Shown here piece after piece: positions 242 through 16,602 of a DNA stretch of 64,000 nt. Below the pieces are notes generated by a model. It searched no databases and was not told the origin of the DNA. It was given only the letters and a program-made list of their open reading frames with translations. The DNA lies in contig CALODB010000007.1 in NCBI GenBank assembly GCA_942492085.1, positions 16,030 through 80,029 of the forward strand. The letters are read 5' to 3'. Position numbers and translations under genes: made by a program. Every line of letters begins with the position of its first letter. Position 1 is the first letter of the stretch. The DNA comes from an uncultured Desulfovibrionaceae bacterium. GTDB lineage: Bacteria > Desulfobacterota > Desulfovibrionia > Desulfovibrionales > Desulfovibrionaceae.

Positions 242-1639
242 CTAACGCCCGTTCTCTTTAAGCCCATACTTTTCAATTCTACCAAGCAGGGTTGGTCTGG
301 ACATTCCAAGCAATTTTGCCGCGCGGGTTTTGTTCCATGAAGCCAGTTCAAGTGCTTCAGAAATTACAATCGCCCCAAAGCGATCTGCAAGCGTTTCAAA
401 AGTCTTTTCGTGATGTTCTGTAAGCAACGTGCGTGTCACCCATGAGCGAATATCTTCCTCATCACCGACAGTTTGAGGCGTTGAAGCAACTCCGTCCACA
501 AGCTTCACAAAATCGTCTTTGCCCAGCGGGAGACCACGGCTAAAAATGAGCGCCTTATGCATTTTATTGCTTAACTCACGAACATTGCCCGGCCATGAAT
601 ATTTTCGCATCATCGCCAAGGCTTCATCGGTCAACCCGGGATTATGCATATCTGATGCGCTGGAATGCATGGACAAAAAATGCTCAGCCAACATGGGAAT
701 ATCCTCTGTTCGCTCTCGAATTGGAGGAAGCGGGATGTTTACGACATTCAAACGGTAGTACAAATCTTCCCTGAACTCCCCATTTGCAACGGCCTGCTCC
801 AAATCTTTATTTGTAGCAGCAAGAACTCGAACATCTACAGAGATAGGATGACTGCCACCAAGTCGCTCTACTTGCCGTTCCTGTAGTAATCGTAAAATTT
901 TAGCTTGAATTGAAGTCGGCATATCTCCGATTTCATCTAAGAAAACTGTTCCACCGTTTGCCAGTTCAATCTTGCCTGCTTTACGATGAGACGCACCGGT
1001 GAACGCGCCCTTTTCATACCCGAACAACTCACTCTCAAGTAACGTATCTGGAATAGCAACACAGTTAATAACTTGAAACGGTGCTTTTGAGCGTGAGCTG
1101 TGCTTATGGATCGCCTGTGCCACAAGCTCCTTACCAGTACCGGACTCTCCACGTATAAGTATGGTGGCATCCGTTGGTGCAGCTCTTCCTATTTTTTTAC
1201 AGACATCCTGCATCGCTCTACTTTTTCCAAGAAGAATAGGTGTATTTGACGGCATGGGGGCAGTACGGGCATGAGCAGAAGCAGCTTGAATTGCTTTTTC
1301 GATAAGAGAGAGAATCTCAGGAACATCAAAGGGTTTCATGACATAGTCAAACGCACCCATTTTTGTAGATTCAATGGCTGTGTCAGTGGTGCCGTATGCC
1401 GTCATAATAAGAACCGGGAGATCAGGATACAACGCACGGAGAGCTTTAAAAGTCTCAAGCCCGTTCATACCCGGAAGGCGAACATCCAACACGGCAATGT
1501 CCGGTCTTTCTTTTTCGGCCAACTCTACACCAGTTTCACCGCAATGCGCTTCCACAACCTCATACCCTTCAGCACGAAGAATATTTTGAAAACTTTTACG
1601 TAACTGAGCGTCATCATCGACTAAGAGAATTTTTGCCAT
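242..1639 (-). CDS. Sigma54-dependent response regulator (NtrC family enhancer-binding protein)
   Basis: 465-aa ORF. N-terminal receiver domain (KILLVDDD, DVRLPGMNG), AAA+ sigma54-interaction domain (GESGTGKE Walker A, GAFTGA loop in YEKGAFTGA), C-terminal Fis-type HTH (AAKLLGMSRPTL). Confidence 0.92.
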   Translation of the reverse strand: MAKILLVDDDAQLRKSFQNILRAEGYEVVEAHCGETGVELAEKERPDIAVLDVRLPGMNGLETFKALRALYPDLPVLIMTAYGTTDTAIESTKMGAFDYVMKPFDVPEILSLIEKAIQAASAHARTAPMPSNTPILLGKSRAMQDVCKKIGRAAPTDATILIRGESGTGKELVAQAIHKHSSRSKAPFQVINCVAIPDTLLESELFGYEKGAFTGASHRKAGKIELANGGTVFLDEIGDMPTSIQAKILRLLQERQVERLGGSHPISVDVRVLAATNKDLEQAVANGEFREDLYYRLNVVNIPLPPIRERTEDIPMLAEHFLSMHSSASDMHNPGLTDEALAMMRKYSWPGNVRELSNKMHKALIFSRGLPLGKDDFVKLVDGVASTPQTVGDEEDIRSWVTRTLLTEHHEKTFETLADRFGAIVISEALELASWNKTRAAKLLGMSRPTLLGRIEKYGLKENGR

Positions 1640-3105
1640 TTGTTCCCTCTTGTTGCAGGAAGCGCGAGTAAGAATGTTGTGCCCTGATTTTCAGAAGACG
1701 TTACATGCAACCAGCCGCCATGCTCTTCCACAATCCGTTTTGCAATGGCAAGCCCGAGCCCTGAACCTTCTTCTTTTGTACTGAAAAACGGTTCAAAAAT
1801 TTTCTCAATAACATCCTCAGCAATCCCCGGCCCTGTATCTTCGATTCTGATAAAAACGATTGTTCCAAGCGGCTCAACTACATCCGTTTTCTCTGTAATG
1901 GTAATTGAGCCCCCTTGAACCATTGCATCACAAGCGTTCAGAATCAAGTTAACAAGTGTTTCCTTTAACTGCCCTCCATCAATAGGAATCGCAGGCAAAA
2001 GTCCAGTTCGTTCAACAGCAACATTTACTTCCTGTGACTCAAACCGGTGTTTAAGTAGCCTGAGTGCTGTATCAACAACTTCGGACGGACTTTGAATTTT
2101 CGCTTTCAATTCTGGACGTCGGGCAAATTCAAGAAAATTTTTCATGATATTATCGATATGCAAAATTTCCTCGCTCACAACATCAAAGTCATCCTGTTGC
2201 TGTGCATCCAGCCGTAACGACCTTTCCAAAGAAAACAATCGCATCTTTACAGAGGTGAGCGGATTACGAATAGAATGAGCAACCCCCGCTGCAAGCTTGC
2301 CGACAAGCGCCATTTTTTCCGACTGAAGGAGGGTTTCCTTATTCGCATCAAGCTCTTTCTGAGTATCATCAATATGTATAATTAACGACTCTAATTTATT
2401 ACTTAATGTCAGCACATCGTTTTTGGTGGAAGGAGAAGCACTGTCACCAATCTCATCCGTGGCATGAGCAAGATTTCGAATAGGATCTAAAATTTTTCTG
2501 TATAAAAAGACGATAAGGAACAGTTCGATAATTGCCGACAAAATCAAACCGGCCATGATGACTTTATTGACTATCTTTGCTTCTTCCGAAAATTCCTTAC
2601 GGTTCATCTCGATAGCCTGCACATAGAGCGCTCTAAACTCTTTGCATAAAAGCAACAAGGTATTGAATTCATCACGAATTTTCCAATGCAGATCAGCCCC
2701 AATCTCCGGCTTTCCCTGCTTGTAGCTTTCGATAACCTCTTTTCTGCTGGTATCATATTCTTTATACAATGATTCCAATTCAGAAAGAACAAGCAAACTT
2801 TCTGCAGAAAAAGCAGATTCTTTTGCTTTTGTAAGCCATCCTTCAAATAATTCGCGTTTAGAATCGAGCTCTTTTAACCATGAATCATCATGTGAAAGTA
2901 GATAGTAAGTAGTGTTGCCCTTTTGATCCATCAATGACGCAGACAGACCATGTGATGCTTCCAACGCTGCCACATTTTTAGCAGAAAGCTGCACTTGCAG
3001 ACTTTGCGTCCGGTTGGTGTACCACAATGTTATGCCCGCACCAATGAGGTTTAGAACAATAACACAGAATAGTAACAACGCGATTCTAGTGCGTAATGAA
3101 AACAT
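1621..3105 (-). CDS. Sensor histidine kinase (two TM segments, coiled-coil/HAMP-like linker, HisKA + HATPase_c)
   Basis: H-box AAGVAHSIRNPL; ATPase boxes NLILNACDA, DTGPGI, GSGLGLAIAK. The ORF runs to 3201, but the ATG at 3105 (MFSLRTRIALLLF) immediately precedes the first TM helix. The 3-prime end overlaps the NtrC start by 19 nt. Confidence 0.85.
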   Translation of the reverse strand: MFSLRTRIALLLFCVIVLNLIGAGITLWYTNRTQSLQVQLSAKNVAALEASHGLSASLMDQKGNTTYYLLSHDDSWLKELDSKRELFEGWLTKAKESAFSAESLLVLSELESLYKEYDTSRKEVIESYKQGKPEIGADLHWKIRDEFNTLLLLCKEFRALYVQAIEMNRKEFSEEAKIVNKVIMAGLILSAIIELFLIVFLYRKILDPIRNLAHATDEIGDSASPSTKNDVLTLSNKLESLIIHIDDTQKELDANKETLLQSEKMALVGKLAAGVAHSIRNPLTSVKMRLFSLERSLRLDAQQQDDFDVVSEEILHIDNIMKNFLEFARRPELKAKIQSPSEVVDTALRLLKHRFESQEVNVAVERTGLLPAIPIDGGQLKETLVNLILNACDAMVQGGSITITEKTDVVEPLGTIVFIRIEDTGPGIAEDVIEKIFEPFFSTKEEGSGLGLAIAKRIVEEHGGWLHVTSSENQGTTFLLALPATRGNKWQKFS

Positions 3106-3235
3106 GTTTACAACCTTTTTACTGCTTTCCATAAAAAGATAACGGGCCGACCTAATCATGCAGGTAGACCCATTATACAAGTGCGCCAATGCCATAACCA
3201 ATATCTACTCTGTGCATTCCACACAGGAGCCATCT

Positions 3236-3633: not shown

Positions 3634-4014
3634 TTAAATGGTTACAAGACCATAGCGTATCTGATCTGGTCTAAGTCCTACTGTTTCCATAAAGGACATA
3701 AATTCGTACTCGCGTTCAGCCTGCGGAACCTCTTTACCCATAAGCTGCAACGCAACTTCCGGCTGTCCAGCTTCTGCAAACGTCAACGGAACAAAATAGT
3801 TATCCATCATGTCAAAAACAGTTGATTCTTTTTCGCGGCCAACACGTGCAGTCCAGTCACCTTCTGTCATTGCTGCACACACCATTTGCTCTTCAAACCA
3901 CCCTTCTGCAGGGCTTGGAAGTTTTGCAATATCCCGTGCTATGGAATGAAAGCCTGCTTCTGCAAACGTAGCTGCTGTAAACGAATTTTCAAGAAACATA
4001 AAAACATTCTGCAT
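3634..4014 (-). CDS. Hypothetical 126-aa protein with an internal duplication (TFAEAG motif twice)
   Basis: ORF sits 17 nt upstream of the CheY gene inside the signalling operon. Repeats are FLENSFTAATFAEAGFHSIA and MMDNYFVPLTFAEAGQPEVA. I recognise no family. Confidence 0.6.
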   Translation of the reverse strand: MQNVFMFLENSFTAATFAEAGFHSIARDIAKLPSPAEGWFEEQMVCAAMTEGDWTARVGREKESTVFDMMDNYFVPLTFAEAGQPEVALQLMGKEVPQAEREYEFMSFMETVGLRPDQIRYGLVTI

Positions 4015-4099: not shown

Positions 4100-5812
4100 C
4101 TACGCCTTTGACTCAGCTGAAAACGGCAATGTTATTGTGAAAACACTTCCAGTTCCCACATGGCTGGTTACTGAAATATCACCACCTAACTTTCGGATAA
4201 TGCCGTATGAAATAGCTAATCCGAGTCCGTTTCCGGCGTTTCTTTTTGTGGTAAAAAATGGTTCAAATATTCGGCTCATGGTGTCTTCGCTCATGCCGCA
4301 ACCATCATCACCGATAATAATTTTGACTCCGTTTTCTACGGTTTTACTTTCAACATATATGACTCCGCCTTCATCCACTGCTTCCAGAGAGTTGCTTACA
4401 ATATTAAGAAATACCTGCTGCAACTGCCCTTTATCGGACTCAATTTCTGACAACGATTCTTCCAACATCATATTTATAGAGATTGAACGTTTAGTGATTT
4501 CTTTTTCCAAGAATTCAAGCACTTCGCTCACAACCTCATTCACATTTAAACATTCATTTTTTGCTTCAACTTTACGGGCAAATCCAAGGAGCCTGTGCGT
4601 AATTGCGCTACACCGCTCTACTGATGAAGTAATTCCATTTATCTGCCGTTCAAGCACACCAGTGACCTCGCCTGCAGGCGATCTCATCAGAATATCCATC
4701 ATCAATCCGGATTTTTCTTTTATGACGGCAAGCGGATTATTGATTTCATGCGCAACGCCAGCAGCCAGACGACCGATTGAGGATAGTTTTTGCGTGTGCT
4801 CAATTTCCTTCAGTATATTTTCACGACATTCATCCGCGAGCATAAGCTGGCGAATAAGTACATTTGTCAGCCCAAAGGCAACAATGGTGATGAGCATTGC
4901 GCCGCCAATGAGGACAACGAGTAAATCAGTGCGTAACGAGAACCATGCTCCGGTTGCCTGAGCAGCAGGACGTACCGCCATCAACACAAATTCAGGCTGC
5001 ATAAAGTTTACGTAGGTAGCAGAAAAATCACCTTTATCTGTCGATATGAGTTCATTACCGCCTCGGTATTCTGCGTGAGGCAATTGGAACGGAACAGAGC
5101 TTAATACAGAGCCGAACAATCGAGATTCCGTTTGAAGTACTCTGTTTTTGTTGAGTAGAAATGCATCCACCCCAGGGGCTAAGTTCATAAAGGAAATAAG
5201 CTTCGAAAACGGCTCCGTTTCGATGGTTGCCCGTAAAACCCACGGCTCACCACCTTCGGTTGCACTCTCAACCGCGATGGCAATATGAGGCAATTTTCGG
5301 TAGCCCAAAAACACACTACTTATATATGTCCCACGCACTCTGGTTTCATTGAACCAATCATGCTCTGAATAATCATTTCCCAACAAATTATATGGTCCGG
5401 CATAGGCAACTTGTTTTCCTTCAGAATTGATCAACCCTAAATCAACAAGCCCTTCAAATTCCTGTTTTGCCGTATGAAATATCTTCCTGATGCTCTGTGT
5501 ATCTGAAAGCTCTTCAAAGCTATGTGTTGCTGCAATAAAGCTCACAGCAGAAAGACGTTCGTTCAAATACAATTCAAAAGAATATTTCGTTTTATTTACA
5601 AGACTCAGCATGGAAAGACGCTGTTCTTTATCCAACGAAGATTTGTAGATATGAAAATTAATCAGTGCCATAAGGCACAATGGAACAAGAGCGACCACCC
5701 CGAACAGACCAATCATTTTAAACCGCAGCAGATTGTACCGCCGCAATCCGGCTTCTTCTTTGGGCACAAAGTACTTCACAAAAAAATTTGATAACCGGCT
5801 TAATGCAATCAT
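4100..5812 (-). CDS. Sensor histidine kinase with extracytoplasmic Cache-like domain
   Basis: 570 aa. A TM helix, an extracytoplasmic segment of about 250 aa and a second TM helix, then H-box AAGVAHEINNPL and ATPase boxes NIVSNSLEA, DDGCGM, GNGLGLAISY. Confidence 0.88.
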   Translation of the reverse strand: MIALSRLSNFFVKYFVPKEEAGLRRYNLLRFKMIGLFGVVALVPLCLMALINFHIYKSSLDKEQRLSMLSLVNKTKYSFELYLNERLSAVSFIAATHSFEELSDTQSIRKIFHTAKQEFEGLVDLGLINSEGKQVAYAGPYNLLGNDYSEHDWFNETRVRGTYISSVFLGYRKLPHIAIAVESATEGGEPWVLRATIETEPFSKLISFMNLAPGVDAFLLNKNRVLQTESRLFGSVLSSVPFQLPHAEYRGGNELISTDKGDFSATYVNFMQPEFVLMAVRPAAQATGAWFSLRTDLLVVLIGGAMLITIVAFGLTNVLIRQLMLADECRENILKEIEHTQKLSSIGRLAAGVAHEINNPLAVIKEKSGLMMDILMRSPAGEVTGVLERQINGITSSVERCSAITHRLLGFARKVEAKNECLNVNEVVSEVLEFLEKEITKRSISINMMLEESLSEIESDKGQLQQVFLNIVSNSLEAVDEGGVIYVESKTVENGVKIIIGDDGCGMSEDTMSRIFEPFFTTKRNAGNGLGLAISYGIIRKLGGDISVTSHVGTGSVFTITLPFSAESKA

Positions 5813-6580: not shown

Positions 6581-6592
6581 CCCGAATTTCTA

Positions 6593-6640
6593 TAAAAATG
6601 TCCCGCACGAGAACAACTCATGCGGGACATTTTGCGTTTG
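6593..6640. terminator. Bidirectional rho-independent terminator between convergent genes
   Basis: Stem ATGTCCCGCACGAG (6598-6611) pairs with CTCATGCGGGACAT (6617-6630), one mismatch. A-run upstream and T-rich tract downstream, so it works on both strands. Confidence 0.8.
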
Positions 6641-6733: not shown

Positions 6734-8560
6734 CTAGACAACAAACTGAATTTCGCTCTCAGAAATATTTTGCCCTATTGCAATCAAAAAGTCGGACATT
6801 GCATCTGAAGGATGCGGGGTAATATCATATCGCCCTGCCACATACTGAACAACGCTCAGGTTTTCATCACCTGCGAAAGTCAGTGCGCCTTTAACGCGAT
6901 AGACTTTTTCGGGAAGAGCCTGAATCCATGCCTCAAAAGCCTCCCGCTTAATTTCTTTCGGAAGTTTAATTGAGATAGAAGACATATTGTCGTGCGTATG
7001 ATTGCGTAAATCTGTCAGCAACAATGGCATCCTTTTCTCCCTCACATTTCGAGGGACGTCAGATTCCAATGCAGAAGGATGTACATCACCATGAACTGTC
7101 TCCAGAACAGACGCCCGAGGGTTCATTCTACGGATCTCTTCATGAAGATCTATCAGCTGCTCTTGTGTGACCAGATCAACTTTATTCAACAGAATCGTAT
7201 CTGCCATGGCAGCCTGACTCCGTGCGACTTCAAAGCTCTTCAGGCACCGCACACCTGCTTCAGCATCAAAGACCGTAGTTACGGAATCAAAAACAATCAG
7301 GTCTTCCAACTCTGCAATCTCTGAAAGCAGGTTAGCAGGATTTGCAAGTCCTGTTGTTTCCACAACAATATAATCCGGCTGAAATACCTGCGTAAGTTCA
7401 ATCGCTGCTGCTTTTAATGAGCCAACAAGCGAACAACATACACAGCCTTCATCAACCTCTGTTACGGCATATTCCTGCCCGAGGATTTTGCCATCCAGCC
7501 CTTGCTTGCCTATTTCGTTCTGTACAACAGCTACAAACTGATTTCGTGCAATCTGGTACTCAATGAATTCTCGTAAAAAGCTTGTTTTTCCTGAACCTAA
7601 AAAGCCTGTCAGAATAATAAGTCGCGGCTTATCCACAATTCCGAGTACTTTTTTATCAAGGCTCTTGCTTTGTGAATCCGGCAGCGACTGCCACCAATCT
7701 TCTCCAGAATATTCTTCTGGAATCGGCTCATCGTGGCACCAAATATTCTGCCACGAGTCAGTCCATGACGCGTCATACAGGACGACGTTCGCACTATTTG
7801 GAATAGTGCCGTACTCAAGTACCAGTTGTCTCTCGAGCTCATCCGTGTCCGGAACCGCATAACATGCACCCTTGGCAGTATAGTGAACCATACGCCCTTC
7901 GCGGATACGCTGCATCATCCTCCCCGGTTGATGCTGCATACAGTACGAAGTTGAAGCCGCAAGTACCCGGAAAAAATCGTATGCCATATCCCAAGCGGGA
8001 ATATTCTGATCAAAATCTCCGGCAGCAATTACTTCTGCCAACTCTGTACCCTCTCCGGCTACCACGCCATCGACAGCAACAGATGCTAAACGCGATGAAG
8101 ACTCCAAACCTAACGTAAAGCCTGTTCCATCCGGTAAAACCGCGACATGCACAGCACCTATGGTAAATGCATCACACAAGGCTTCATGCTTCACGTACTC
8201 ACGCAGCAACGTTTTATATTCATTCAACTGCGTAATCAGTCCTGCCTGAACAGAAAATGATTCAACTATGTCCTCATCCGGCTGAGGGAAATAACTTACG
8301 GGAAAAACACCAACCGAAACTCCGCCCTGTTCCATAACAGTTGCACGACGAATTCCAAATACGCCGGAATACCCCGCAAGTTTCATCGTCCATGCATCAG
8401 AAGCGAAACAGCAGTCTTTAACACCGCGCCACCCTAACTGAAAACGGATTCCAGGAATAAAATTAGAACGAACAATTATTGCCTTCAGCACTTCTGATGC
8501 CGCAACATCTGGAACCTGTAAGGCAACCTGAGGGCAGATGGAATGTGGAATGACGCGCAT
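6734..8560 (-). CDS. COG0523-family G3E GTPase (CobW/YjiA-like metallochaperone) fused to an uncharacterised N-terminal region of about 300 aa
   Basis: C-terminal half has the P-loop GFLGSGKTS, the CxCC metal motif (EGCVCCSL), ETTGLANP, NKVDL and a CobW_C-like tail. The ATG at 8560 is preceded by AGGAG; the ORF itself extends to 8620. I match the N-terminal half to nothing. Confidence 0.8.
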   Translation of the reverse strand: MRVIPHSICPQVALQVPDVAASEVLKAIIVRSNFIPGIRFQLGWRGVKDCCFASDAWTMKLAGYSGVFGIRRATVMEQGGVSVGVFPVSYFPQPDEDIVESFSVQAGLITQLNEYKTLLREYVKHEALCDAFTIGAVHVAVLPDGTGFTLGLESSSRLASVAVDGVVAGEGTELAEVIAAGDFDQNIPAWDMAYDFFRVLAASTSYCMQHQPGRMMQRIREGRMVHYTAKGACYAVPDTDELERQLVLEYGTIPNSANVVLYDASWTDSWQNIWCHDEPIPEEYSGEDWWQSLPDSQSKSLDKKVLGIVDKPRLIILTGFLGSGKTSFLREFIEYQIARNQFVAVVQNEIGKQGLDGKILGQEYAVTEVDEGCVCCSLVGSLKAAAIELTQVFQPDYIVVETTGLANPANLLSEIAELEDLIVFDSVTTVFDAEAGVRCLKSFEVARSQAAMADTILLNKVDLVTQEQLIDLHEEIRRMNPRASVLETVHGDVHPSALESDVPRNVREKRMPLLLTDLRNHTHDNMSSISIKLPKEIKREAFEAWIQALPEKVYRVKGALTFAGDENLSVVQYVAGRYDITPHPSDAMSDFLIAIGQNISESEIQFVV

Positions 8561-8666
8561 AAAAACTCCTGAGGACCGCCTGAAGCCCCTTTCGGGAGCG
8601 TAGTGCTTCAGGCGGTACAAATGGACTTACTATCCCCTTGGTAGGGAGTGCAGGGGAGTTAGGGAG

Positions 8667-9833
8667 CTATCCAAAGGTAATGGTATCACCATTGCCAAGA
8701 TAGGCTGTGTCTTTAGAACGGAATTGAGCGGTGCCTTCTACGACAGGGTAGCCGGCGTTAATGAACTTTTTGGCACACAACACACCCGTACAATGGTTGC
8801 AGCCAATGCGCTCAAATCCGTATTTCCCTAGGGAGATAACTAAGTCGTCATATTTTGGATCCCAGTCCTCAAACGGAGATATATGTAGACCACCGTAGAT
8901 TCCATGGAAGTTATCGTTCTCATACGCAATTTCCTGATAGGCAGTTTCTGCGAACCGGATAATGCCCTGATGGCAACAGCCGGTAACACTTACAAGTCCT
9001 TTATCTGCGATGTTGAAGTATAATGACTGTTCACCGTACACTCGGCAGATAATCGGAACAGGGAATACGTAGGTTGCAAATCCCGGTGCGACTTCAAATA
9101 ATCCGTTTTTAACGGTATGAACCTCTCCTTTGTGCCCGCAGTCCTTAATGTACTGCAGCCCTTCTTCATAAAACCCTTCAGGTATATAAATGGTTATTTC
9201 CGGATCATATTTCAATGTAACCGGCAAGCCCCAGTAATGGTCAAAGTGTTCGTGGGAAATGAACAGCGCTTCAATTTCTTTGTTCCGCAGCATGGTATCG
9301 ATGCCTTCGCGCTTAAAACACTCGTCCATCCATTTGTATGACCAGCCGGAATCCAACAGAAACTTACGCTTGTTGCCGTCCATTTCTTCCATTTCTACAA
9401 GGCAGGAGTACCCACCAGGGTTCTCTGGGTGGATGCAATTTTCTAAAATCACGTCCCACGCCTCATCAAGACGGTCAGGAAGGAACTCTTTAATCTTGGC
9501 CATACCTTCTGCATATGAACCTTTGCCGAGTCCTTTTCCATTACCGAACGGTGGCCAGTTGTAGTCGTACTGGTTTACAAGCAACCCGCCAGCTTTTTTA
9601 ATATCACCAATCAATGTGGCGTTATCAAACCAGCTTGTTTCTGAAATGTTTGTAACGTGGACAGACCGGCATACACCGATGTCTTTTTGCTTACGATCCA
9701 CCTTAGGGAACATTTCTTTACGGGCATCAGAATATGAATACATACCCATGGCTGCAAATACACCAACACCAACACCTGTTGCTGCGCCTTTTAAAAAGTC
9801 ACGGCGTTTTACTTCTTTCTTTTCAGTAGTCAT
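8667..9833 (-). CDS. Tat-exported metallo-beta-lactamase-fold protein (COG1237-like)
   Basis: Twin-arginine signal (KRRDFLKGAATGVGVGVFA). MBL motif HEHFDH, plus downstream GCCHQG, GGLH and NHCTG motifs typical of the COG1237 branch of the MBL superfamily. Confidence 0.75.
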   Translation of the reverse strand: MTTEKKEVKRRDFLKGAATGVGVGVFAAMGMYSYSDARKEMFPKVDRKQKDIGVCRSVHVTNISETSWFDNATLIGDIKKAGGLLVNQYDYNWPPFGNGKGLGKGSYAEGMAKIKEFLPDRLDEAWDVILENCIHPENPGGYSCLVEMEEMDGNKRKFLLDSGWSYKWMDECFKREGIDTMLRNKEIEALFISHEHFDHYWGLPVTLKYDPEITIYIPEGFYEEGLQYIKDCGHKGEVHTVKNGLFEVAPGFATYVFPVPIICRVYGEQSLYFNIADKGLVSVTGCCHQGIIRFAETAYQEIAYENDNFHGIYGGLHISPFEDWDPKYDDLVISLGKYGFERIGCNHCTGVLCAKKFINAGYPVVEGTAQFRSKDTAYLGNGDTITFG

Positions 9834-9852
9834 GACAGATATCTCCCTTGTA

Positions 9853-11265
9853 CTACTTTAGAATATCAACGGCTGCATACAGGCCCGGAAGCGCGTAGAT
9901 GGTAAACACATAGAATGCTACCCCTGCGAGCGCGCCCATACCCAATCCGGCACCGAGACTTGGAGACCAGCGCACATCATCAATTTCTGCCTGACGCGCT
10001 GCATGATCTGCTTCAATTTCTTCCACAGTTTTCGGAACCATTTTCCAGCCTGGCCAGTTGTCCATAAACCAGTGGTTTACGAGCCAAATGTTAACAAGCC
10101 AGATCATAGGAATCATAGGGAACTGCTGCGGATGCGAGAACCCTTTCTGAGTTCCGAGGAACAAGTGTGAAACTTTGTAGTAGCCGATGTACAGTGCAAT
10201 TGTTGCGACCAACGTAATAATAGTCCGCAGAAGCACGTTTACAGGCATACTGAATTTGTTTGGCCAGTTACCGCAGTAGAAATGAAGGAACAAAGCCGGA
10301 ACAAGGAAGAAGATAGCCATTTCGCCTACGTGCAACCAACGCCAATCCGGTGCAAAAGCACGACGGGTACCGCGAATAGCCTCACCCCATGTCAGTTCCT
10401 GTGCAAAGTACAAGAAGAAGTGCATGGCAAGAGAAATAGCAATGATACCGAAGAATAACGCGAAGCGTCGTAACCACGGATTACGGATAAGATTAAACGG
10501 GTAACGCTGCCAGATGGTTTCAACCAGCCAAACAACAACCGTACAACACATAATCCATGAAACATGGAAGTTACCGGAAACAGTATCAGCAAACTTTTCC
10601 CAGTATGGCGGTGCAATAGATGTAAAAGACTGCCAAGGATGATAGAGAATACCCATGTGTGGGTGCATGGTTACAAAGTACACAATGGTTGAGAGAAAGA
10701 AGGTGCAGATAAGCATACTGAACCCTTTTGCAGGCTGCGGTAGTTTACTCCACGGCTCTTCTTCCATTGCAACAACCCATGCAGGACTAAGCCATGATGC
10801 AATAGCTGCAAACATGAGAATCGCCAGACAAGAGTATTCTACTGCAAAAAATTCTGTGATTCCGGGGAGCTTTACCAGCTGTTCCGGATTAAAGTATGCA
10901 AGCCCGTAGTTGCCGAGCAAGCCTTCAAAAAATCCCTTAATGAGGATATACAGCACACCCACAGATACCGCACTGAGCACGATCCCTTTGGTGAGCGGGT
11001 GAGTCGATTCCAACCATTTGCGTTTAAACGGCCAGAAGTTGAACAAGTACACCATCCAGATCATAACAATCAGCCACCAGCGTGTGTACATGTATCCAAC
11101 ATACGGAGTATACATGCGCAGAACACCACGTGGATCATGGAAAAACCACCACGTGGCGTAAAACATGATCAACGTAAACAGTAGATTAAGCAGAGCTGGG
11201 GTTGGTCCAGACCACCGTTTTACAAGCTTTCGCTCTTCTAGATAATTAGTCCCGTACCGTTCCAT
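9853..11265 (-). CDS. Trp-rich polytopic integral membrane protein (470 aa, roughly 12 hydrophobic segments), unknown family
   Basis: Long ORF, strongly hydrophobic throughout, with many W/F/Y clusters (TWWFF, RWWLIVMIWMV, NIWLVNHWFMDNWPGW). It ends 19 nt before the MBL gene start. Confidence 0.7.
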   Translation of the reverse strand: MERYGTNYLEERKLVKRWSGPTPALLNLLFTLIMFYATWWFFHDPRGVLRMYTPYVGYMYTRWWLIVMIWMVYLFNFWPFKRKWLESTHPLTKGIVLSAVSVGVLYILIKGFFEGLLGNYGLAYFNPEQLVKLPGITEFFAVEYSCLAILMFAAIASWLSPAWVVAMEEEPWSKLPQPAKGFSMLICTFFLSTIVYFVTMHPHMGILYHPWQSFTSIAPPYWEKFADTVSGNFHVSWIMCCTVVVWLVETIWQRYPFNLIRNPWLRRFALFFGIIAISLAMHFFLYFAQELTWGEAIRGTRRAFAPDWRWLHVGEMAIFFLVPALFLHFYCGNWPNKFSMPVNVLLRTIITLVATIALYIGYYKVSHLFLGTQKGFSHPQQFPMIPMIWLVNIWLVNHWFMDNWPGWKMVPKTVEEIEADHAARQAEIDDVRWSPSLGAGLGMGALAGVAFYVFTIYALPGLYAAVDILK

Positions 11266-11315
11266 TAGCGACCTCCTATTCCCTTGCGGAATGCATTTGT
11301 TCTATCAACAAGACT

Positions 11316-11564
11316 CTATGAAGAATTTTTGCAGCTTTCCAAGGCAGCTTGAATAGCTCGACACACCTCGTCGCTATCAGCATCTGGCGATAGCCCCAGT
11401 CGTTCTGCTTCCATCGCAAGCAACTCGGCTGGAAACTCGCTGAAAAGCTCTGTACTGACTTCAGTAGAGTCCGGATGTTCATTCACAATATCAACCGGTG
11501 TCTCATCAACGGATGATGCAAATGTAAATGGTGCAGAGAGGAATCCCCTTCTGGTCAACTTCAT
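11316..11564 (-). CDS. Small acidic protein (82 aa) with twin-arginine signal-like N-terminus
   Basis: The ATG at 11564 forms an ATGA overlap with the GntR stop codon. N-terminus is MKLTRRGFLSAPFTFASS; the remainder is acidic (D/E/S-rich). The longer 103-aa ORF version lacks support. Confidence 0.55.
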   Translation of the reverse strand: MKLTRRGFLSAPFTFASSVDETPVDIVNEHPDSTEVSTELFSEFPAELLAMEAERLGLSPDADSDEVCRAIQAALESCKNSS

Positions 11565-12295
11565 GACCAATCCCCCCCATACTCCTGCATTGCAGCAAAA
11601 ACCAAATCTGTCGCCTTCACGTTGCAATGCCCTTCGGCAGCGTGTGAAAAAAACAAAACATACTTTTTCATTATCTCAGCAGCGCGCCCCCCATCCCGTT
11701 CGCGCAGTGCATGAATTAACTTCACATGAGATGCGAACAACTTGTCCCGTTGTTCCTGCGTTAATCTGGTAATCATTGTCCCCAACAAATCTGAATAAGC
11801 AAAAAGGTGTTCAACAACCGTCACCAAGTATTGGTTATTGGTACCTTGCGCTAAGATACGGAAAAAACTCAGCACATCATCATAGATCATAGGAGTAGCA
11901 CCGGACAGCAGGCTACGAGATATCGCAATGTTTGCCTGCTGCAATTTATCAATCAACCGCACCCCTATATTCTCTGCACTCTGTGCCGCAACAATGGGAA
12001 GTATCAAATACGAACTCTCATTTCGTTCTGCCATTTGCCTTTCAGAGTCATGGCCGCTTGATTCCTGTACATCTTCAAATTCGAGTAAACATGTATGCAA
12101 AAAGGTACCGCTACCTTTCCGAATGGAAACAAGTCTGCATGCTTCAAGCTTGTGCAAAACATTCCTCAACGTATTTCGGGAGACTCCCAGAAGTGGTGCA
12201 AGCACTCTTTCCGGTGGCAAGCGGTCTCCGGGCTGAAGATTACGTTCATGCACAATGGTTGATAGCTTTTTCAATAACTCCTGATAACCTTTCAC
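11561..12295 (-). CDS. GntR-family transcriptional regulator (FadR/FCD subfamily)
   Basis: N-terminal winged HTH (GDRLPPERVLAPLLGVSRNTLRNVLHKLE) followed by an all-helical FCD-like ligand domain. Confidence 0.85.
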   Translation of the reverse strand: MKGYQELLKKLSTIVHERNLQPGDRLPPERVLAPLLGVSRNTLRNVLHKLEACRLVSIRKGSGTFLHTCLLEFEDVQESSGHDSERQMAERNESSYLILPIVAAQSAENIGVRLIDKLQQANIAISRSLLSGATPMIYDDVLSFFRILAQGTNNQYLVTVVEHLFAYSDLLGTMITRLTQEQRDKLFASHVKLIHALRERDGGRAAEIMKKYVLFFSHAAEGHCNVKATDLVFAAMQEYGGDWS

Positions 12296-12455
12296 AGTCC
12301 CTCCAGCAAAGATTCTGCTGTATTGCTACAGGTTAGAGTAAGTTGGTAATTACATGCGTCAAAAATCAATAACAATAAAAAGTGTTTTTTTATTCTACTA
12401 TTGACCCAATCTAATCAATTTGTAACCCAAAAAGATAATTGGGTGAGCCAATTAT

Positions 12456-12492
12456 AATAAAAAACCACCCTAACTCTCGTTAGGGTGGTTTA
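12456..12492 (-). terminator. Rho-independent terminator of the PAS/GAF-like gene
   Basis: Perfect stem AACCACCCTAAC (12463-12474) / GTTAGGGTGGTT (12479-12490). T-run on the minus strand (plus-strand A-run 12458-12464). Confidence 0.85.
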
Positions 12493-12532: not shown

Positions 12533-13492
12533 CTATATTCTGGCGCGATCCTGCCTACGCCAAGGACGTGCAACCTTCATGAAAGGCTCTAAAATATCAT
12601 CATACGAATCAATCAACTTATCTTTGAATCTGGCTGTCTTTTTAGAACAGACAATTACCACACTACGCAGCACTCCCCGTACATAATACGGCTTGGCATA
12701 GTAGGAGCGAATACCACGCGGAACAAACAACGCCCAGTCGATGGGCTTAATGCTGTCCAATGTATCATCCACAATAAGATAATTAAGATTGTACCGTTCA
12801 ATATCTTGAGCGATTGTTCCCTTGTATGGATAAATTTCTCCCTGAATAGCACCTTCAAAAACTTTACCGCTATAGTACACGCTTACTTTGTTTTTTCGAG
12901 TCTGCACATCTGAAAACAGCAACCCATCTATATGCTCCTGCTTATGCAGCTGTTCATACATGGCCGTTAATGACTCAGAAATATTGATTTCATATTGAGT
13001 TCCGGTTGGCACCACAACTGCCGCCGGCTTATCTTCCTTCAAAACACCTTGTGCACCTTCGACAAGCTCTTCTTCAGCTATTCTAGTCACCACTGCGGCA
13101 GTGTCTGTAACATCGCTTAATGTGCCGTGATAATAATTGGGGTCGCAAGAACTACGCGTGCCAATAAGCTTAAGCCACATGAGCACACCAGATTTATTGA
13201 TAACACGAAAAACCGTTGAAGCGCTTTTGCGCTCTTTCATTTTATCAAAAAAAGCATCTACCCGCCCTTTTTCACCAGGCAACAACAACTCATCCCTAAA
13301 GGATATATTCTTCATAAAAAGTGAAGTATCCTCACCTAACCCTTCGATGACGAATTCATTCAAAATCTCAATTCGAGAACGGGGGATCTCAACTCTCCAT
13401 AGCAATGCCTGAAAATCGTCCACAAAACATAACAGTTCCTGATCTGATATATTTGCTATGGTTCTGATACACCCATTTTTTTTCTGATACAT
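12533..13492 (-). CDS. Hypothetical sensor-like protein (PAS-like N-terminal half, GAF-like C-terminal half, no output domain)
   Basis: Long ORF. The PAS-like call rests on the pattern VFRVINKSGVLMWLKLIGTRS...YHGTLSDVTD. The start is uncertain: ATG at 13492, or a TTG-initiated ORF reaching 13540. Confidence 0.5.
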   Translation of the reverse strand: MYQKKNGCIRTIANISDQELLCFVDDFQALLWRVEIPRSRIEILNEFVIEGLGEDTSLFMKNISFRDELLLPGEKGRVDAFFDKMKERKSASTVFRVINKSGVLMWLKLIGTRSSCDPNYYHGTLSDVTDTAAVVTRIAEEELVEGAQGVLKEDKPAAVVVPTGTQYEINISESLTAMYEQLHKQEHIDGLLFSDVQTRKNKVSVYYSGKVFEGAIQGEIYPYKGTIAQDIERYNLNYLIVDDTLDSIKPIDWALFVPRGIRSYYAKPYYVRGVLRSVVIVCSKKTARFKDKLIDSYDDILEPFMKVARPWRRQDRARI

Positions 13493-13883
13493 GCTCAATC
13501 CGTCTTTAAAAAATGCGAGTTGGTGAAACAATATGTCCAAGGGGCAAAGATATGAAGCTCTCTATACAAATTGCAAGCTCTAAAAAAATAAGTTCTTACT
13601 TCTTTCTTTAATAAAAACAACACGCTGTTTTTAAAATAAAAAAATAAAATGTAAACAGTCAATTTATATTATTGATATAACAACATATGACATAACAAGG
13701 AATATATACGTGCAAATTTATTGCACGCTTCACATTATAGCTCTGGTACTTTTCAACTAGAAAATTTCTTTACAAAGAAAATCTTATAAATTCCCAATCG
13801 GTAACAATCTTCCATAAAACGTCACACTTTCCTTACCAGCTTGACATAATGGAGCTTCTATGTCGGATTATGAATGTCTTTTT

Positions 13884-15028
13884 GCTGCGGATTGTAATTT
13901 GAATTTTAACACCCTGATCAAATGAAGGCTTAAAAAAAGAAGCCCCATGATATGTTGTCCTTACACAAAAAAACTCCACAATGGAGGGACAGCAAGCATG
14001 GGGCACAAACAGATTACATTTGATGAACGAAAAATACTAGAAAGATTACGAGCTCAGAAATTGAGTATGGGCTTTTGTGCGAAAGCACTTGGACGATCTG
14101 TGGCTGCCATTTCGTTAGAGATCAAAAAAGGCAGCAAGAACATGGATCGCTATGGACGGTATTGTGCTGAATTGGCTCAACGAAGGACTGTCTTACGTAG
14201 AAGGCGAGCACGACGAAAAGGCAAAAATTATCCGGATGAGTTACTTAGCTATGTGCGCAAAAATCTGTGTAACTACTGGTCTCCAGAGCAAATTGAGGGA
14301 CGCCTATGCGTGGATTATCCGAATAACCCAGCGATGCGGATTTCCTTTAAAACGCTTTATAGATGGCTGCAGGCTGGTACTTTTTCTACAGTCCCTCATC
14401 CTTGGAAAGGATATGCGAGATACCTCAGACTAAAGCGTGGCGGCAAAAGCTTTAAGAGGAATTGGCAAGAGCAACGGGGACGAAAAAAAGGACTACCGAG
14501 TATTGAAGAGCGTCCTACCAGCGCAAACAAACGCAGCAGGTTTGGAGACTGGGAAGGAGATTTGATTCGGGGCTTCAAAGGGCAAGGTTACATCGCAACT
14601 TTAGTTGAAAGAAAGACAGGACTTCTCGTGGCAGCTCCGTGCGCGAGTAAACATGCTGAAGTCGTTAACATGTCTATTGTTGAGGCATTACAGGGCGTCC
14701 CAAACGACCAGATTAAAACGATCACGTTTGATCGTGGAAAAGAATTTTATGGATATGAAGCGTTAAGCAAGAAACTGAAAACGAAAATTTACTTTTGTCA
14801 TCCTCACTGTCCAAATGAACGGGGGCAAAACGAACAGGCTAACGGCCTGTTAAGACAGTTTTTTCCAAAACGAAAACCACTAAATACGGTTACGCCTGAA
14901 CAAATAAATAGGGCAGTTGCTTTAATAAACAACCGCCCCAAAAAGAAAATTAACTATTGGACAACAATGGAGCTCTTAGAAAAGCTCGAATTGAATCAAG
15001 TGTTAAAATTGGCGTGACAATCTGCGGC
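13884..15028 (+). mobile_element. IS30-family insertion sequence (about 1.15 kb)
   Basis: Single transposase ORF flanked by imperfect terminal inverted repeats: GCTGCGGATTGTAATTTGAATTTTAACAC (13884-13912) versus the reverse complement of 15000-15028, GCCGCAGATTGTCACGCCAATTTTAACAC (about 21 of 29 identical). The right IR overlaps the transposase 3-prime end, as is typical for IS30. Confidence 0.8.
13998..15017 (+). CDS. IS30-family DDE transposase
   Basis: GGAGG lies 9 nt upstream of the ATG at 13998. N-terminal HTH; catalytic-core motifs WEGDLI, TFDRGKEF, ERGQNEQANGLLRQFFPK. Confidence 0.88.
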   Translation: MGHKQITFDERKILERLRAQKLSMGFCAKALGRSVAAISLEIKKGSKNMDRYGRYCAELAQRRTVLRRRRARRKGKNYPDELLSYVRKNLCNYWSPEQIEGRLCVDYPNNPAMRISFKTLYRWLQAGTFSTVPHPWKGYARYLRLKRGGKSFKRNWQEQRGRKKGLPSIEERPTSANKRSRFGDWEGDLIRGFKGQGYIATLVERKTGLLVAAPCASKHAEVVNMSIVEALQGVPNDQIKTITFDRGKEFYGYEALSKKLKTKIYFCHPHCPNERGQNEQANGLLRQFFPKRKPLNTVTPEQINRAVALINNRPKKKINYWTTMELLEKLELNQVLKLA

Positions 15029-15109: not shown

Positions 15110-15811
15110 ATGCACTCCCCATTACTAGAAACACAAACCGGCACGCACAACAATATGCCGGCGTTAACATTTAAGAACGTCAGCTTCACATGGCCGGGTG
15201 GAGCCGGACTGCACAACGTTTCATTCACTATTCCGAAGGGACAATTTGTTCTCATTTCCGGCGCATCAGGATCAGGAAAATCAACACTCTTACGGCTTGC
15301 TGTCCGTCTCGAAGAAGCCTGTGCTGGGGAAATACTATTACGCGGTATTCCAATTACATCATTCTACCCCCCCACCTTGCGTACACATATAGGGTTCGTA
15401 CAACAGCAGCCGACACTCGTTTCAGGCTCTGTACGTCAAAACCTACTCTTTCCATTTGCACTACACAGCAGAAAAAACTGCGTGCAGCCAGAAGAGGAAG
15501 TACTTATTCAATGGCTTAAAAAATTAGCACTGGATAAGATTTCACTGGATACTCCTGCCGAAACGTTATCAGTCGGGCAACAACAACGACTCTGTTTCAT
15601 TCGTGCAGTACTGACCAATCCGGACGTAATCTGCTTTGACGAACCCACAAGCTCTCTTGACCGTGAAAGCAGAGAATGCGTTGAACATGCAGCCGAAGAA
15701 CTGGTACAACAAGGAACATCAACCATAATGGTGAACCACACCAGTTACCATCCAGCCTGCCCGCATATGCATATTTCCGTTGCAGACGGCACTGTGAGTA
15801 TACTCCCATGA
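15110..15811 (+). CDS. fetA: ABC transporter ATP-binding protein, FetA (YbbL)-like
   Basis: Walker A GASGSGKST, signature LSVGQQQR, Walker [12 protein letters not shown]. It overlaps the downstream FetB-like permease gene by 4 nt. The start could instead be the ATG at 15155. Confidence 0.8.
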   Translation: MHSPLLETQTGTHNNMPALTFKNVSFTWPGGAGLHNVSFTIPKGQFVLISGASGSGKSTLLRLAVRLEEACAGEILLRGIPITSFYPPTLRTHIGFVQQQPTLVSGSVRQNLLFPFALHSRKNCVQPEEEVLIQWLKKLALDKISLDTPAETLSVGQQQRLCFIRAVLTNPDVICFDEPTSSLDRESRECVEHAAEELVQQGTSTIMVNHTSYHPACPHMHISVADGTVSILP

Positions 15812-16602
15812 CATCATTCATCTCCATATCATGGATACAGCTTCTCATAGCTCTCGGGCTTGTAAGTATATCCGCAGCAGCATCACTGTATTATCATTTG
15901 AAGCTTGAGCGCGACTTGTTTGTAGGCGTAATCCGCACCTTCGCCCAATTACTGGCAATGGGATACTTGCTGAACATCCTGTTCGGTCTCAACAACGCAT
16001 TCCTTGTACTGACAGTCTATGCCATTATGACATTCATCTCCGTGCATATTGTCTACGGGCGTGTGAAAGAAAAGCAAGTGGCCTACTTTGCTCCTACAAC
16101 TCTTGCCGTAATGATCAGCTACACACTCATCACAATTCTTGTTACGAAGATTATTATCGGTGCAGATCCTTGGTGGAGCCCGCAATACTTTATTCCTATT
16201 GGTGGAATGGTGACTGGTAACTCCATGAATGCCCTATCCCTCACCTTGGAACGATTCTTTTCAGAGCTACGCTCAAAGCGAGATCAAGTTGAAATGTATC
16301 TATGTCATGGCGCAGACTACAAAGAAGCCACAGAAGAAATTTTCCGCACATCACTTCGAGCCGGTATGATTCCGGCAATCAACTCTATGATGAGCGTCGG
16401 ACTGGTTTCCATTCCCGGCATGATGACCGGTCAAATCCTTGCCGGAATTGATCCACAGGAAGCTGTGCGCTATCAGATCGTCGTCATGCTTATGATTGTC
16501 GGATCAACAGCCCTTGCGTCAATTCTGGTATTATTACTGGTTCGCAAACGTTGCTTCACTTCAGCTATGACACTTATACTTACGAAACACATACCTTTAT
16601 AA
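15808..16602 (+). CDS. fetB: FetB (YbbM, UPF0014) family iron-export ABC permease
   Basis: VGLVSIPGMMTGQILAGIDPQEAVRYQIVVM closely matches the conserved E. coli YbbM segment VGLVSLPGMMSGLIFAGIDPVKAIKYQIMV as I recall it. Size and TM pattern also fit. Confidence 0.85.
   Translation: MTSFISISWIQLLIALGLVSISAAASLYYHLKLERDLFVGVIRTFAQLLAMGYLLNILFGLNNAFLVLTVYAIMTFISVHIVYGRVKEKQVAYFAPTTLAVMISYTLITILVTKIIIGADPWWSPQYFIPIGGMVTGNSMNALSLTLERFFSELRSKRDQVEMYLCHGADYKEATEEIFRTSLRAGMIPAINSMMSVGLVSIPGMMTGQILAGIDPQEAVRYQIVVMLMIVGSTALASILVLLLVRKRCFTSAMTLILTKHIPL

Follow-up and report, generated by a model that had tools for sequence, protein, structure and literature searches.

A stretch of 64,000 nucleotides from an uncultured Desulfovibrionaceae bacterium (contig CALODB010000007.1; hereafter "the window") carries, on the minus strand at positions 6734-12295, five closely packed genes for a GntR-family regulator, a small acidic protein, a polytopic membrane protein, a metallo-beta-lactamase (MBL) fold enzyme, and a 608-residue protein in which an N-terminal domain of about 300 residues (the N-domain) precedes a COG0523 GTPase. 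We find that these genes represent a real, strongly co-conserved and uncharacterised module, a COG0523-assisted metalloenzyme operon that is set apart by the export of its client and by three orphan components, namely an adaptor domain, a small partner and a membrane partner. The best explanation for the module, to which we give slightly less than even credence, is that it constitutes an inducible envelope system in which a metallated MBL hydrolase, exported through the twin-arginine translocation (Tat) pathway, operates with a membrane partner.

Conservation and organisation of the module

Relatives of the membrane protein were sought in one genome per species across 185,579 species; 242 were found and 80 loci were fetched, and the component counts given here take only those loci with enough sequence on the relevant side. 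The module is present in at least 242 bacterial species, mostly anaerobes of marine sediment and the animal gut. The MBL gene follows the membrane protein gene in 77 of 78 loci and the N-domain protein is next in order in 74 of 75, with the COG0523 half present in 70 of 72. On the upstream side, a profile hidden Markov model places a homologue of the small protein directly before the membrane protein gene in at least 56 of 78 loci, a GntR gene is found in 57 of 73, and a homologue of the 335-residue sensor-like open reading frame of the window adjoins the GntR gene in 52 of 71. ExbB is encoded downstream in 19 of 70 loci, mostly together with ExbD and TonB, and the COG0523 gene overlaps the ExbB gene by 1 to 10 bases in four loci (L009, L028, L055 and L067; L numbers are our labels for loci). 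Compared with their counterparts in the window, membrane proteins and MBLs alike show a median identity of 71%, GTPase halves 44%, GntR proteins 32% and N-domains 30%. The closest database relatives of the window copy, which come from Halodesulfovibrio, are 98% identical.

Recurrence of this gene order in 80 loci of distant taxa shows that the arrangement is not due to chance. A preliminary description of this DNA had placed five packed genes on the minus strand and treated them as a unit. All five are present at those coordinates and are co-conserved as one unit across phyla, yet the unit proves to be wider than proposed, with a PAS-type sensor encoded upstream and an ExbB-ExbD-TonB trio in about one quarter of the loci (19-21 of 80). 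In the window no ExbB, ExbD or TonB gene follows the operon, and the gene set does not amount to a TonB-dependent uptake system.

The same gene order is found in sulfate- and sulfur-reducing Desulfobacterota, in Alpha-, Beta- and Gammaproteobacteria, and in Spirochaetota, Holophagales and Bacteroidales. Hosts include Desulfovibrionaceae and Bilophila; Desulfobacter, Desulfobacula and Desulfobacterium; Desulfuromusa, Malonomonas and Geopsychrobacteraceae; Pseudovibrio, Rhodobium, Methylocystaceae and Rhodospirillales; Sutterella, Parasutterella and Alcaligenaceae; Thalassotalea; and Leptospirales. Horizontal transfer has probably moved the module between lineages. No Pfam family is recurrent among the 126 nearest flanking proteins (each family occurs at most 4 times), so the module, which lies in varying genomic surroundings, is functionally self-contained. 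A plasmid search returned no plasmid match. Within Halodesulfovibrio the module has been lost from some genomes, since three of them (L083 8001-9023, L084 7628-8650 and L085 8001-9023) retain only the sensor gene, the GntR gene and, after the latter, a 340-residue stump of the 608-residue gene whose P-loop region has decayed (KPRLSALAGLLEAGKV versus KPRLIILTGFLGSGKT); the small-protein, membrane-protein and MBL genes are gone.

Two further features of individual loci were observed. Sutterella genomes have tRNA genes upstream of the module at a distance of no more than about 1 kb (L052 7445-7518, L069 6944-7017 and L075 1-63), as expected of an island integration site. A few genomes carry extra small genes between the MBL and COG0523 genes (L080 10660-11241, L020 10736-11110 and L035 10656-11033); the insert in Thalassotalea encodes a 193-residue protein whose N-terminal part is OpuAC-like (quaternary-amine binding), and that in Spirochaetota a 124-residue lipoprotein.

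In the window, the intergenic gaps along the operon from the GntR gene to the COG0523 gene are -4, 50, 19 and 106 bp, and a Shine-Dalgarno-like sequence precedes each of the five start codons. The five genes look like a single transcription unit because terminator hairpins bracket them (Table 1). The downstream hairpin was missed by the terminator scanner because its loop is longer than 8 nucleotides. An inverted repeat within the 106-bp gap may form an mRNA stem-loop that sets the relative expression of the flanking genes or lowers that of the chaperone gene.

The exported enzyme and its proposed maturation proteins

The MBL protein matches Lactamase_B above the cut-off (25.6 bits versus 22.7; E = 1.4e-5) and contains the three strings reported for it earlier, HEHFDH, GCCHQG and NHCTG. 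In an alignment of 50 sequences, including variants at 32-47% identity, residues H194, H196, D198, H199, C286, H288, H317, H347 and C348 are at least 97% conserved. The closest solved chains are 7dck (2.5e-14) and 2p4z, with 3h3e also among the best PDB sequence matches. These COG1237-type proteins, to which their depositors assign no specific function, share the GCxH, GGxH and HC(T/S)G motifs with the window protein. However, their chains comprise only 248-284 residues and the alignments begin well inside the window MBL, which differs in having a Tat signal or anchor and about 100 extra N-terminal residues that include a conserved ETSWFDN. Judged by these motifs and matches, the enzyme is a true MBL-superfamily member of the COG1237 type. 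Zinc is most likely its metal, given the cysteine conserved in the site and the Cys-rich nature of the putative donor.

Assignment of the MBL as a Tat-type exported enzyme is supported by a match to TIGR01409 (21.8 versus a cut-off of 16.7) and by its N-terminal signal, KRRDFLKGAATGVGVGVFAAMGMYSYS, which conforms to the Tat consensus (S/T)RRxFLK with KRRDFLKG followed by the hydrophobic segment AATGVGVGVFAAMGM. Among 77 homologues, the best 12-residue hydropathy after the twin arginine has a median of 1.62. Conservation across phyla extends to the hydrophobic region of the signal (DFLKGAATGVGVG..AMG.YSYS), where no AxA cleavage site is obvious, and therefore the signal is probably an uncleaved anchor.

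The C-terminal half of the 608-residue protein had been described as a COG0523 GTPase with a CxCC motif, and this assignment is borne out. The protein matches cobW (PF02492, 1e-38, residues 335-506 as numbered from a TTG start) and CobW_C (PF07683, 1.6e-13), which jointly span residues 335-625, and the cysteines of GCVCCS (C373, C375 and C376) are invariant in 55 orthologues. The ATG at 8560, which yields the 608-residue form, is a better start than the TTG at 8620; AGGAG lies five bases upstream, and the 55 orthologues begin there. In a Foldseek search the model of the protein resembles YjiA (4ixm, 4ixn and 1nij, E ~1e-16). Scores against the NCBIfam equivalogs nevertheless fall far short of any named subfamily (ZigA, 72 versus 600; CobW, 107 versus 332; PRK11537, 110 versus 361), such that this half classes as a true COG0523 member that belongs to no named subfamily. 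The comparative data support the view that the COG0523 protein is dedicated to this module.

AlphaFold 2 predicts the N-domain with a predicted local distance difference test (pLDDT) score of about 90 over residues 60-250 and the G3E half confidently, with a flexible linker. The N-domain has no Pfam match, and a PDB profile search gave chance matches only. When the N-domain alone was used in a protein search, the only hits were two stand-alone relics, which are decayed copies. We propose that the N-domain is an adaptor that docks the metal donor onto its client.

The small acidic protein begins MKLTRRGFLSAPF and contains 16 Asp/Glu versus 6 Lys/Arg residues, in line with the acidic, ATGA-coupled protein noted previously. 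Most homologues have an N-terminal RRxF(F/L) and a conserved C-terminal motif, PELLAMEAERLGL, and a divergent homologue in L098 lacks the twin arginine. No match was obtained in Pfam, NCBIfam or PADLOC. The preliminary description had counted two Tat-signal proteins in the operon. The signal of the MBL is canonical, but the small protein has a twin arginine that no hydrophobic segment follows: among 25 homologues, the subsequent segment has a median best 12-residue hydropathy of 0.07 and a median of 4 charged residues among the 18 after the twin arginine, although the window copy taken by itself is borderline. We therefore rejected the small protein as a second Tat substrate, since it lacks the hydrophobic core and its export is unlikely.

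The contigs of nine divergent membrane-protein clusters were also looked up. Every variant at 28-43% identity has an MBL gene (32-47% identical) beside the membrane protein gene, in either order. Most of these variants also encode two further proteins: one of 71-96 residues that shares the C-terminal motif of the small protein (YP.ELL..EA...GI), and an N-domain protein of 240-345 residues that stands alone. The small protein is present in the divergent variants L082, L088, L091, L097 and L098, and the N-domain stands alone in L048/L049, L081, L082, L088, L097 and L098. Three of the five stand-alone N-domain proteins of divergent variants end in Cys/His-rich tails (DCLCCLHDH, SSCGCESCHK and GTGCCCCH). 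As read from gene content, the module has a four-gene core that encodes the exported MBL, the membrane protein, the small acidic protein and the N-domain, and its universal partner is the N-domain rather than the GTPase. In L090, the MBL has a hydrophobic anchor of the general secretory (Sec) type and no Tat signal, the N-domain and small protein are absent, and a DsbD_2-type membrane protein follows instead. The ubiquity of the N-domain, the Cys/His-rich tails and this Sec-type exception give new support to a role in metal delivery.

Two of the divergent loci bear on a different chemistry. The enzyme might be a periplasmic redox protein with an iron site that exchanges electrons via periplasmic cytochromes c, the membrane protein or both, in the manner of MsrP-MsrQ. 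The strongest point in favour of such an enzyme is that a small CxxCH cytochrome c, with weak Dehyd-heme_bind and Cytochrome_CBB3 matches, is encoded inside the module at two different positions (L097 6501-6776, 91 residues; L098 10258-10572, 104 residues). Moreover, some MBL-fold proteins act as oxygenases or reductases, the hosts are rich in periplasmic cytochromes, and a Tat-exported enzyme with a dedicated membrane partner resembles the MsrPQ layout. However, neither the window nor any of the 80 main-clade loci yielded a cytochrome gene or a homologue of those two, and there is no flavin or Fe-S partner. The MBL has HxHxDH in place of the HxExDH of flavodiiron proteins and carries no flavodoxin domain, and the single His conserved in the membrane protein family is too few for bis-His haems. 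We regard a redox function as the least probable of the alternatives weighed here.

The membrane protein and control of the operon

The membrane protein was described beforehand as Trp-rich and unassigned, and both statements hold: Trp makes up 5.7% of its residues, the protein is rich in aromatics, and it has no match in Pfam or NCBIfam, nor do 10 distant relatives match Pfam. A PDB profile search with the family gave chance matches only. The AlphaFold 2 model is of medium confidence (pLDDT 68; predicted template modelling score 0.71), and Foldseek against the PDB returned a best E of 0.27 with all TM-scores at or below 0.30, which, for a medium-confidence model, leaves a new fold unproven. 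Alignment of the two halves with hhalign points to an internal duplication, in which residues ~54-200 correspond to residues 231-363 with four helices each (89.7% probability, E = 1.9e-6), and which pairs WPF with YPF and the intramembrane Glu143 with Glu315. H312 is the only His conserved across the wider family, and the C-terminal helix is missing from distant variants. A HMMER search against 1.84 billion cluster representatives gave only 146 matches, of which about 15 are distinct full-length clusters down to 24% identity, and by this measure the family is small and isolated.

Two assignments of the membrane protein were tried and rejected. The Joint Genome Institute name "AAT family amino acid transporter" would call for a match to amino-acid permease profiles or to the LeuT/APC fold, but there is no Pfam, NCBIfam or PDB-profile match and no Foldseek E below 0.27, and the repeat is one of 4+4 helices; this misleading public annotation is hereby corrected. 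The single conserved His likewise speaks against a haem-handling WWD protein or a di-haem cytochrome b.

No MBL gene neighbours the most distant relatives of the membrane protein, which stand at 22-24% identity (L092 534-2728, L094 8001-10003, L095 and L096) and adjoin patatin-like or alpha/beta-hydrolase genes. Some of these contigs are archaeal-looking, and CetZ on L094 suggests that it derives from an archaeon; beta-oxidation genes lie near the relative in L094 and L095. Such neighbours would suit a role in envelope modification, in which the membrane protein presents a lipid- or polymer-linked group and a membrane-anchored MBL trims it, much as a polytopic membrane protein and an extracytoplasmic hydrolase-fold partner work together in cell-wall or lipid modification. 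Three features are compatible with this role: the hydrophobic region of the Tat signal shows the conservation of a genuine membrane anchor, aromatic residues are very abundant in the membrane protein, and the module needs no cytoplasmic catabolic genes. Nonetheless, rarity (~242 of 185,579 species genomes), acquisition by transfer and loss in close relatives argue against a basic role in the envelope. A GntR/FCD regulator and a PAS-type sensor suggest instead an inducible, substrate-driven system, and the TonB link points to import. We consider envelope modification quite improbable.

The GntR protein is, by its domain matches, a standard FCD-type regulator (FadR/FCD subfamily), and its scores against all NCBIfam equivalogs are far below the cut-offs. 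Its gene is retained in the divergent L097. A palindrome upstream of the operon is a candidate GntR operator; its core, ATTGGnTCACCCAATT, is kept in four Halodesulfovibrio loci, including those with only GntR and the relic. The sensor-like gene beyond it is likely a regulatory accessory of the module. Homologues elsewhere are 300-470 residues long with a strongly conserved C-terminal portion of ~130 residues, and similarity to PAS_3 is sub-threshold in the window copy (0.089) and reaches 8.4e-4 in the L028 homologue. A riboswitch search with Rfam in 17 loci without GntR gave only tRNA genes, the signal recognition particle RNA and an unrelated S-adenosylmethionine riboswitch 2.5 kb away. Cobamide uptake or remodelling was rejected as a function, as there is no B12 riboswitch and no cobalamin gene nearby.

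Table 1. Features of the module and its surroundings in the window
Feature	Positions	Strand	Remarks
Operon terminator (likely)	6592..6630	-	Hairpin ATGTCCCGCA-(13 nt)-TGCGGGACAT, then TTTTTA; read from sequence
608-residue protein	6734..8560	-	Orphan N-domain plus COG0523 GTPase
COG0523 (G3E) GTPase half	6734..7660	-	P-loop GFLGSGKT, GCVCCS, CobW_C
N-domain, ~300 residues, orphan	7661..8560	-	No conserved Cys or His; predicted beta-rich
11-bp inverted repeat	8576..8615	-	CCGCCTGAAGC...GCTTCAGGCGG, in the MBL-COG0523 gap; read from sequence
Tat-targeted MBL-fold metallohydrolase, 388 residues	8667..9833	-	Lactamase_B and TIGR01409 matches
Polytopic membrane protein, 470 residues, orphan family	9853..11265	-	~10 helices plus a C-terminal helix
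Small acidic protein, 82 residues, orphan family	11316..11564	-	Core component; ATGA overlap with GntR stop codon
GntR-family regulator with FCD domain, 244 residues	11561..12295	-	GTG start; PF00392 2.3e-15, PF07729 1.9e-11
Palindrome ATAATTGGcTCACCCAATTAT, then TTGGGT repeats	12435..12455	-	Candidate GntR operator
Intrinsic terminator	12462..12491	-	13-bp stem, then T-run; ends sensor gene, marks upstream edge of operon
Sensor-like protein, 335 residues from TTG start	12533..13540	-	Weak PAS similarity; own transcription unit
Sigma-54 response regulator	242..1639
Second kinase	1621..3201
126-residue open reading frame	3634..4014	-	Between the two kinase genes
dCache sensor histidine kinase	4100..5812	-	Just downstream of the operon
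IS30-like transposase (HTH_38 + rve)	13947..15017	+	Between sensor gene and ABC/UPF0014 pair
ABC/UPF0014 pair	15110..16602

Several neighbouring genes in the window were recorded (Table 1). Full-length homologues of the dCache kinase occur near the module in L001 (90% identity) and in L007, L033, L041 and L062 (31-33%); in L033 and L041, where no GntR match was detected, genes for a kinase and a response regulator lie just upstream of the module. Beyond the dCache kinase gene of the window are a small open reading frame, which contains FAEAG... twice (repeat-like) and has no Pfam match, and genes for a second kinase and a sigma-54 response regulator. On the other side, an IS30-like transposase separates the sensor gene from the ABC/UPF0014 pair. 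The syntenic loci L001 and L083 lack the transposase and have the same genes as direct neighbours, so the insertion is confined to this genome.

Proposed function and significance

The earlier idea of cytoplasmic metallation followed by Tat export, a membrane partner and GntR control fits the comparative data. The working part would be a binuclear-metal MBL-fold hydrolase of a self-contained, horizontally spread envelope module. Folding of the MBL, and probably its binding of metal, would have to precede Tat export; the 608-residue protein would load that metal, with the N-domain acting as a client-specific adaptor and the COG0523 GTPase, through its CxCC site, as the donor. In divergent relatives a Cys/His-rich tail would take the place of the GTPase. 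The small protein with its twin arginine would be part of cytoplasmic maturation or targeting and not an exported subunit, a placement suggested by its presence with Tat-type MBLs and its absence from the single Sec-type case. Once exported, the MBL would probably stay tethered by its conserved signal or anchor helix to the outer face of the cytoplasmic membrane and act there together with the adjacent membrane protein. The latter, a pseudo-symmetric protein with two four-helix repeats and a buried Glu in each, most likely moves substrate or product through or within the membrane, as the analogy to two-repeat transporters and the paired buried Glu residues suggest. GntR/FCD, probably acting through the upstream palindrome, and the PAS-type sensor would make expression responsive to a small molecule. 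Finally, the ExbB-ExbD-TonB set, present and co-translated in about a quarter of genomes, suggests energised passage of substrate through the outer membrane. Metallation before export, cooperation between the MBL and the membrane protein, the identity of the metal, and hydrolysis-coupled transport are all steps that we infer from sequence and gene context.

Another way to account for the same genes is that they serve metal acquisition or trafficking in metal-poor, sulfidic habitats. The membrane protein would then be a permease for metal ions or metal chelates with the paired Glu as ion site, the N-domain would dock the GTPase on the cytoplasmic face of the permease as acceptor of the metal, the periplasmic MBL would free metal from a carrier molecule, and ExbB-ExbD-TonB would drive uptake across the outer membrane. 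COG0523 together with ExbB-ExbD-TonB is typical of metal-limitation loci, and the recurrence of the trio in this module, the equivalent buried Glu in both repeats of the membrane protein and the Cys-rich donors are as such a system might have them. In addition, most hosts make sulfide or live alongside sulfide producers, and the module contains no cytoplasmic catabolic enzyme. Among the strongest observations to the contrary, the regulators are GntR/FCD and PAS-type proteins, with none of the Zur, Fur or NikR type, and it is precisely the variant whose MBL is not a Tat substrate that lacks the N-domain and small protein, which ties both to the MBL rather than to the membrane protein. Moreover, the most obvious metal client is the MBL, whose catalytic site is complete, no TonB-dependent receptor gene is adjacent, and the membrane protein is unlike any known metal transporter family. 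On balance we consider metal acquisition unlikely.

Several observations weigh against our preferred explanation, a metallated and exported MBL hydrolase with a membrane partner. A TonB-dependent receptor was not found among the checked neighbours of the ExbB-ExbD-TonB sets. Contacts of the N-domain/GTPase protein with the MBL, and of the MBL with the membrane protein, are proposed from gene context. Calling the membrane protein a transporter is an analogy, made with a medium-confidence model that has no fold match. All 50 Foldseek matches listed for the whole 608-residue model are G3E/SRP-type GTPases, with none for the N-domain. The correlation between a Sec anchor and the absence of the N-domain and small protein comes from a single contig (L090). 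The cytochrome c in one divergent subclade (L097 and L098) hints at redox chemistry over hydrolysis. Furthermore, GntR/FCD proteins are unusual as regulators of metal-linked systems.

It is conceivable, if rather doubtful, that the module represents a distinct kind of envelope system, in which a maturation device specific for one Tat substrate is combined with an internally duplicated membrane protein of orphan fold, the obligate partner of the exported hydrolase, and which processes and imports a substrate that anaerobes of sediment and gut are not known to use. In such a system, the orphan adaptor would carry the donor, be it the COG0523 GTPase or a Cys-rich tail, and the small twin-arginine protein, possibly a signal-peptide mimic, would couple metal insertion to Tat targeting.

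Comparison with described systems places the module close to several of them and within none. As expected from the preliminary description, no match to a characterised transporter/enzyme pair emerged from Pfam, NCBIfam, PADLOC, PDB sequence searches, Foldseek against the PDB or the literature, and no published description of this gene set was found in a literature search whose coverage excluded most subscription journals. Anti-phage defence was rejected because PADLOC gave no match for six proteins and the enzyme is exported. COG0523-client pairs (ZigA, CobW, YjiA/YeiR and the nitrile hydratase activator) share with the window GTPase the G3E P-loop, CxCC, CobW_C and a YjiA-like fold, and the window GTPase is likewise encoded beside a metalloenzyme that is a plausible client. 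Unlike them, the window protein adds a 300-residue orphan N-domain, the more widely conserved part, and divergent N-domains can bear a Cys-rich tail in place of the GTPase. We know of no described COG0523 case with a Tat-exported client, and the literature search found none either.

NosZ with NosR/NosL and MsrP-MsrQ have the same architecture, with a Tat-signal catalytic subunit, an adjacent polytopic membrane protein and metal-handling accessories in one operon. However, they have no sequence or fold relation to the module: the catalytic fold here is that of an MBL, and neither the haem ligands nor the domains of NosR or MsrQ occur in the membrane protein. ComEC, a loose analogue, combines a polytopic membrane part with an outward-facing MBL-fold hydrolase. 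The match of the window MBL to the ComEC model TIGR00361 is weak (6.9e-5 over the HxHxDH region; 21 bits versus a cut-off of 190), and the module, unlike ComEC, encodes the two parts separately and has a Tat-targeted MBL. A split ComEC was rejected because the membrane protein has no competence-domain match. The role proposed for the N-domain and small protein, that of a cytoplasmic, substrate-specific factor acting before Tat export, would be comparable by analogy to those of TorD, DmsD and NapD. TorD and DmsD are all-helical, whereas the N-domain is predicted to be beta-rich and has no Pfam or PDB profile match to these Tat proofreading chaperone families. The small protein carries a twin-arginine motif itself, whereas proofreading chaperones bind one.

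None of the searches used places the membrane protein, the N-domain or the small protein in a described family. The module therefore contains three protein families without a Pfam model, and the membrane protein and N-domain also have no PDB relative. How Tat-exported enzymes acquire their metals is poorly understood; few COG0523 clients are known and, to our knowledge, none is exported. Its single enzyme, its one chaperone with a separate adaptor domain and its one small partner make the module a compact and genetically separable test case. It occurs in human- and animal-gut Desulfovibrio, Bilophila, Sutterella and Parasutterella, and identifying its substrate could bring to light an activity of gut and sediment anaerobes that has gone unrecognised.

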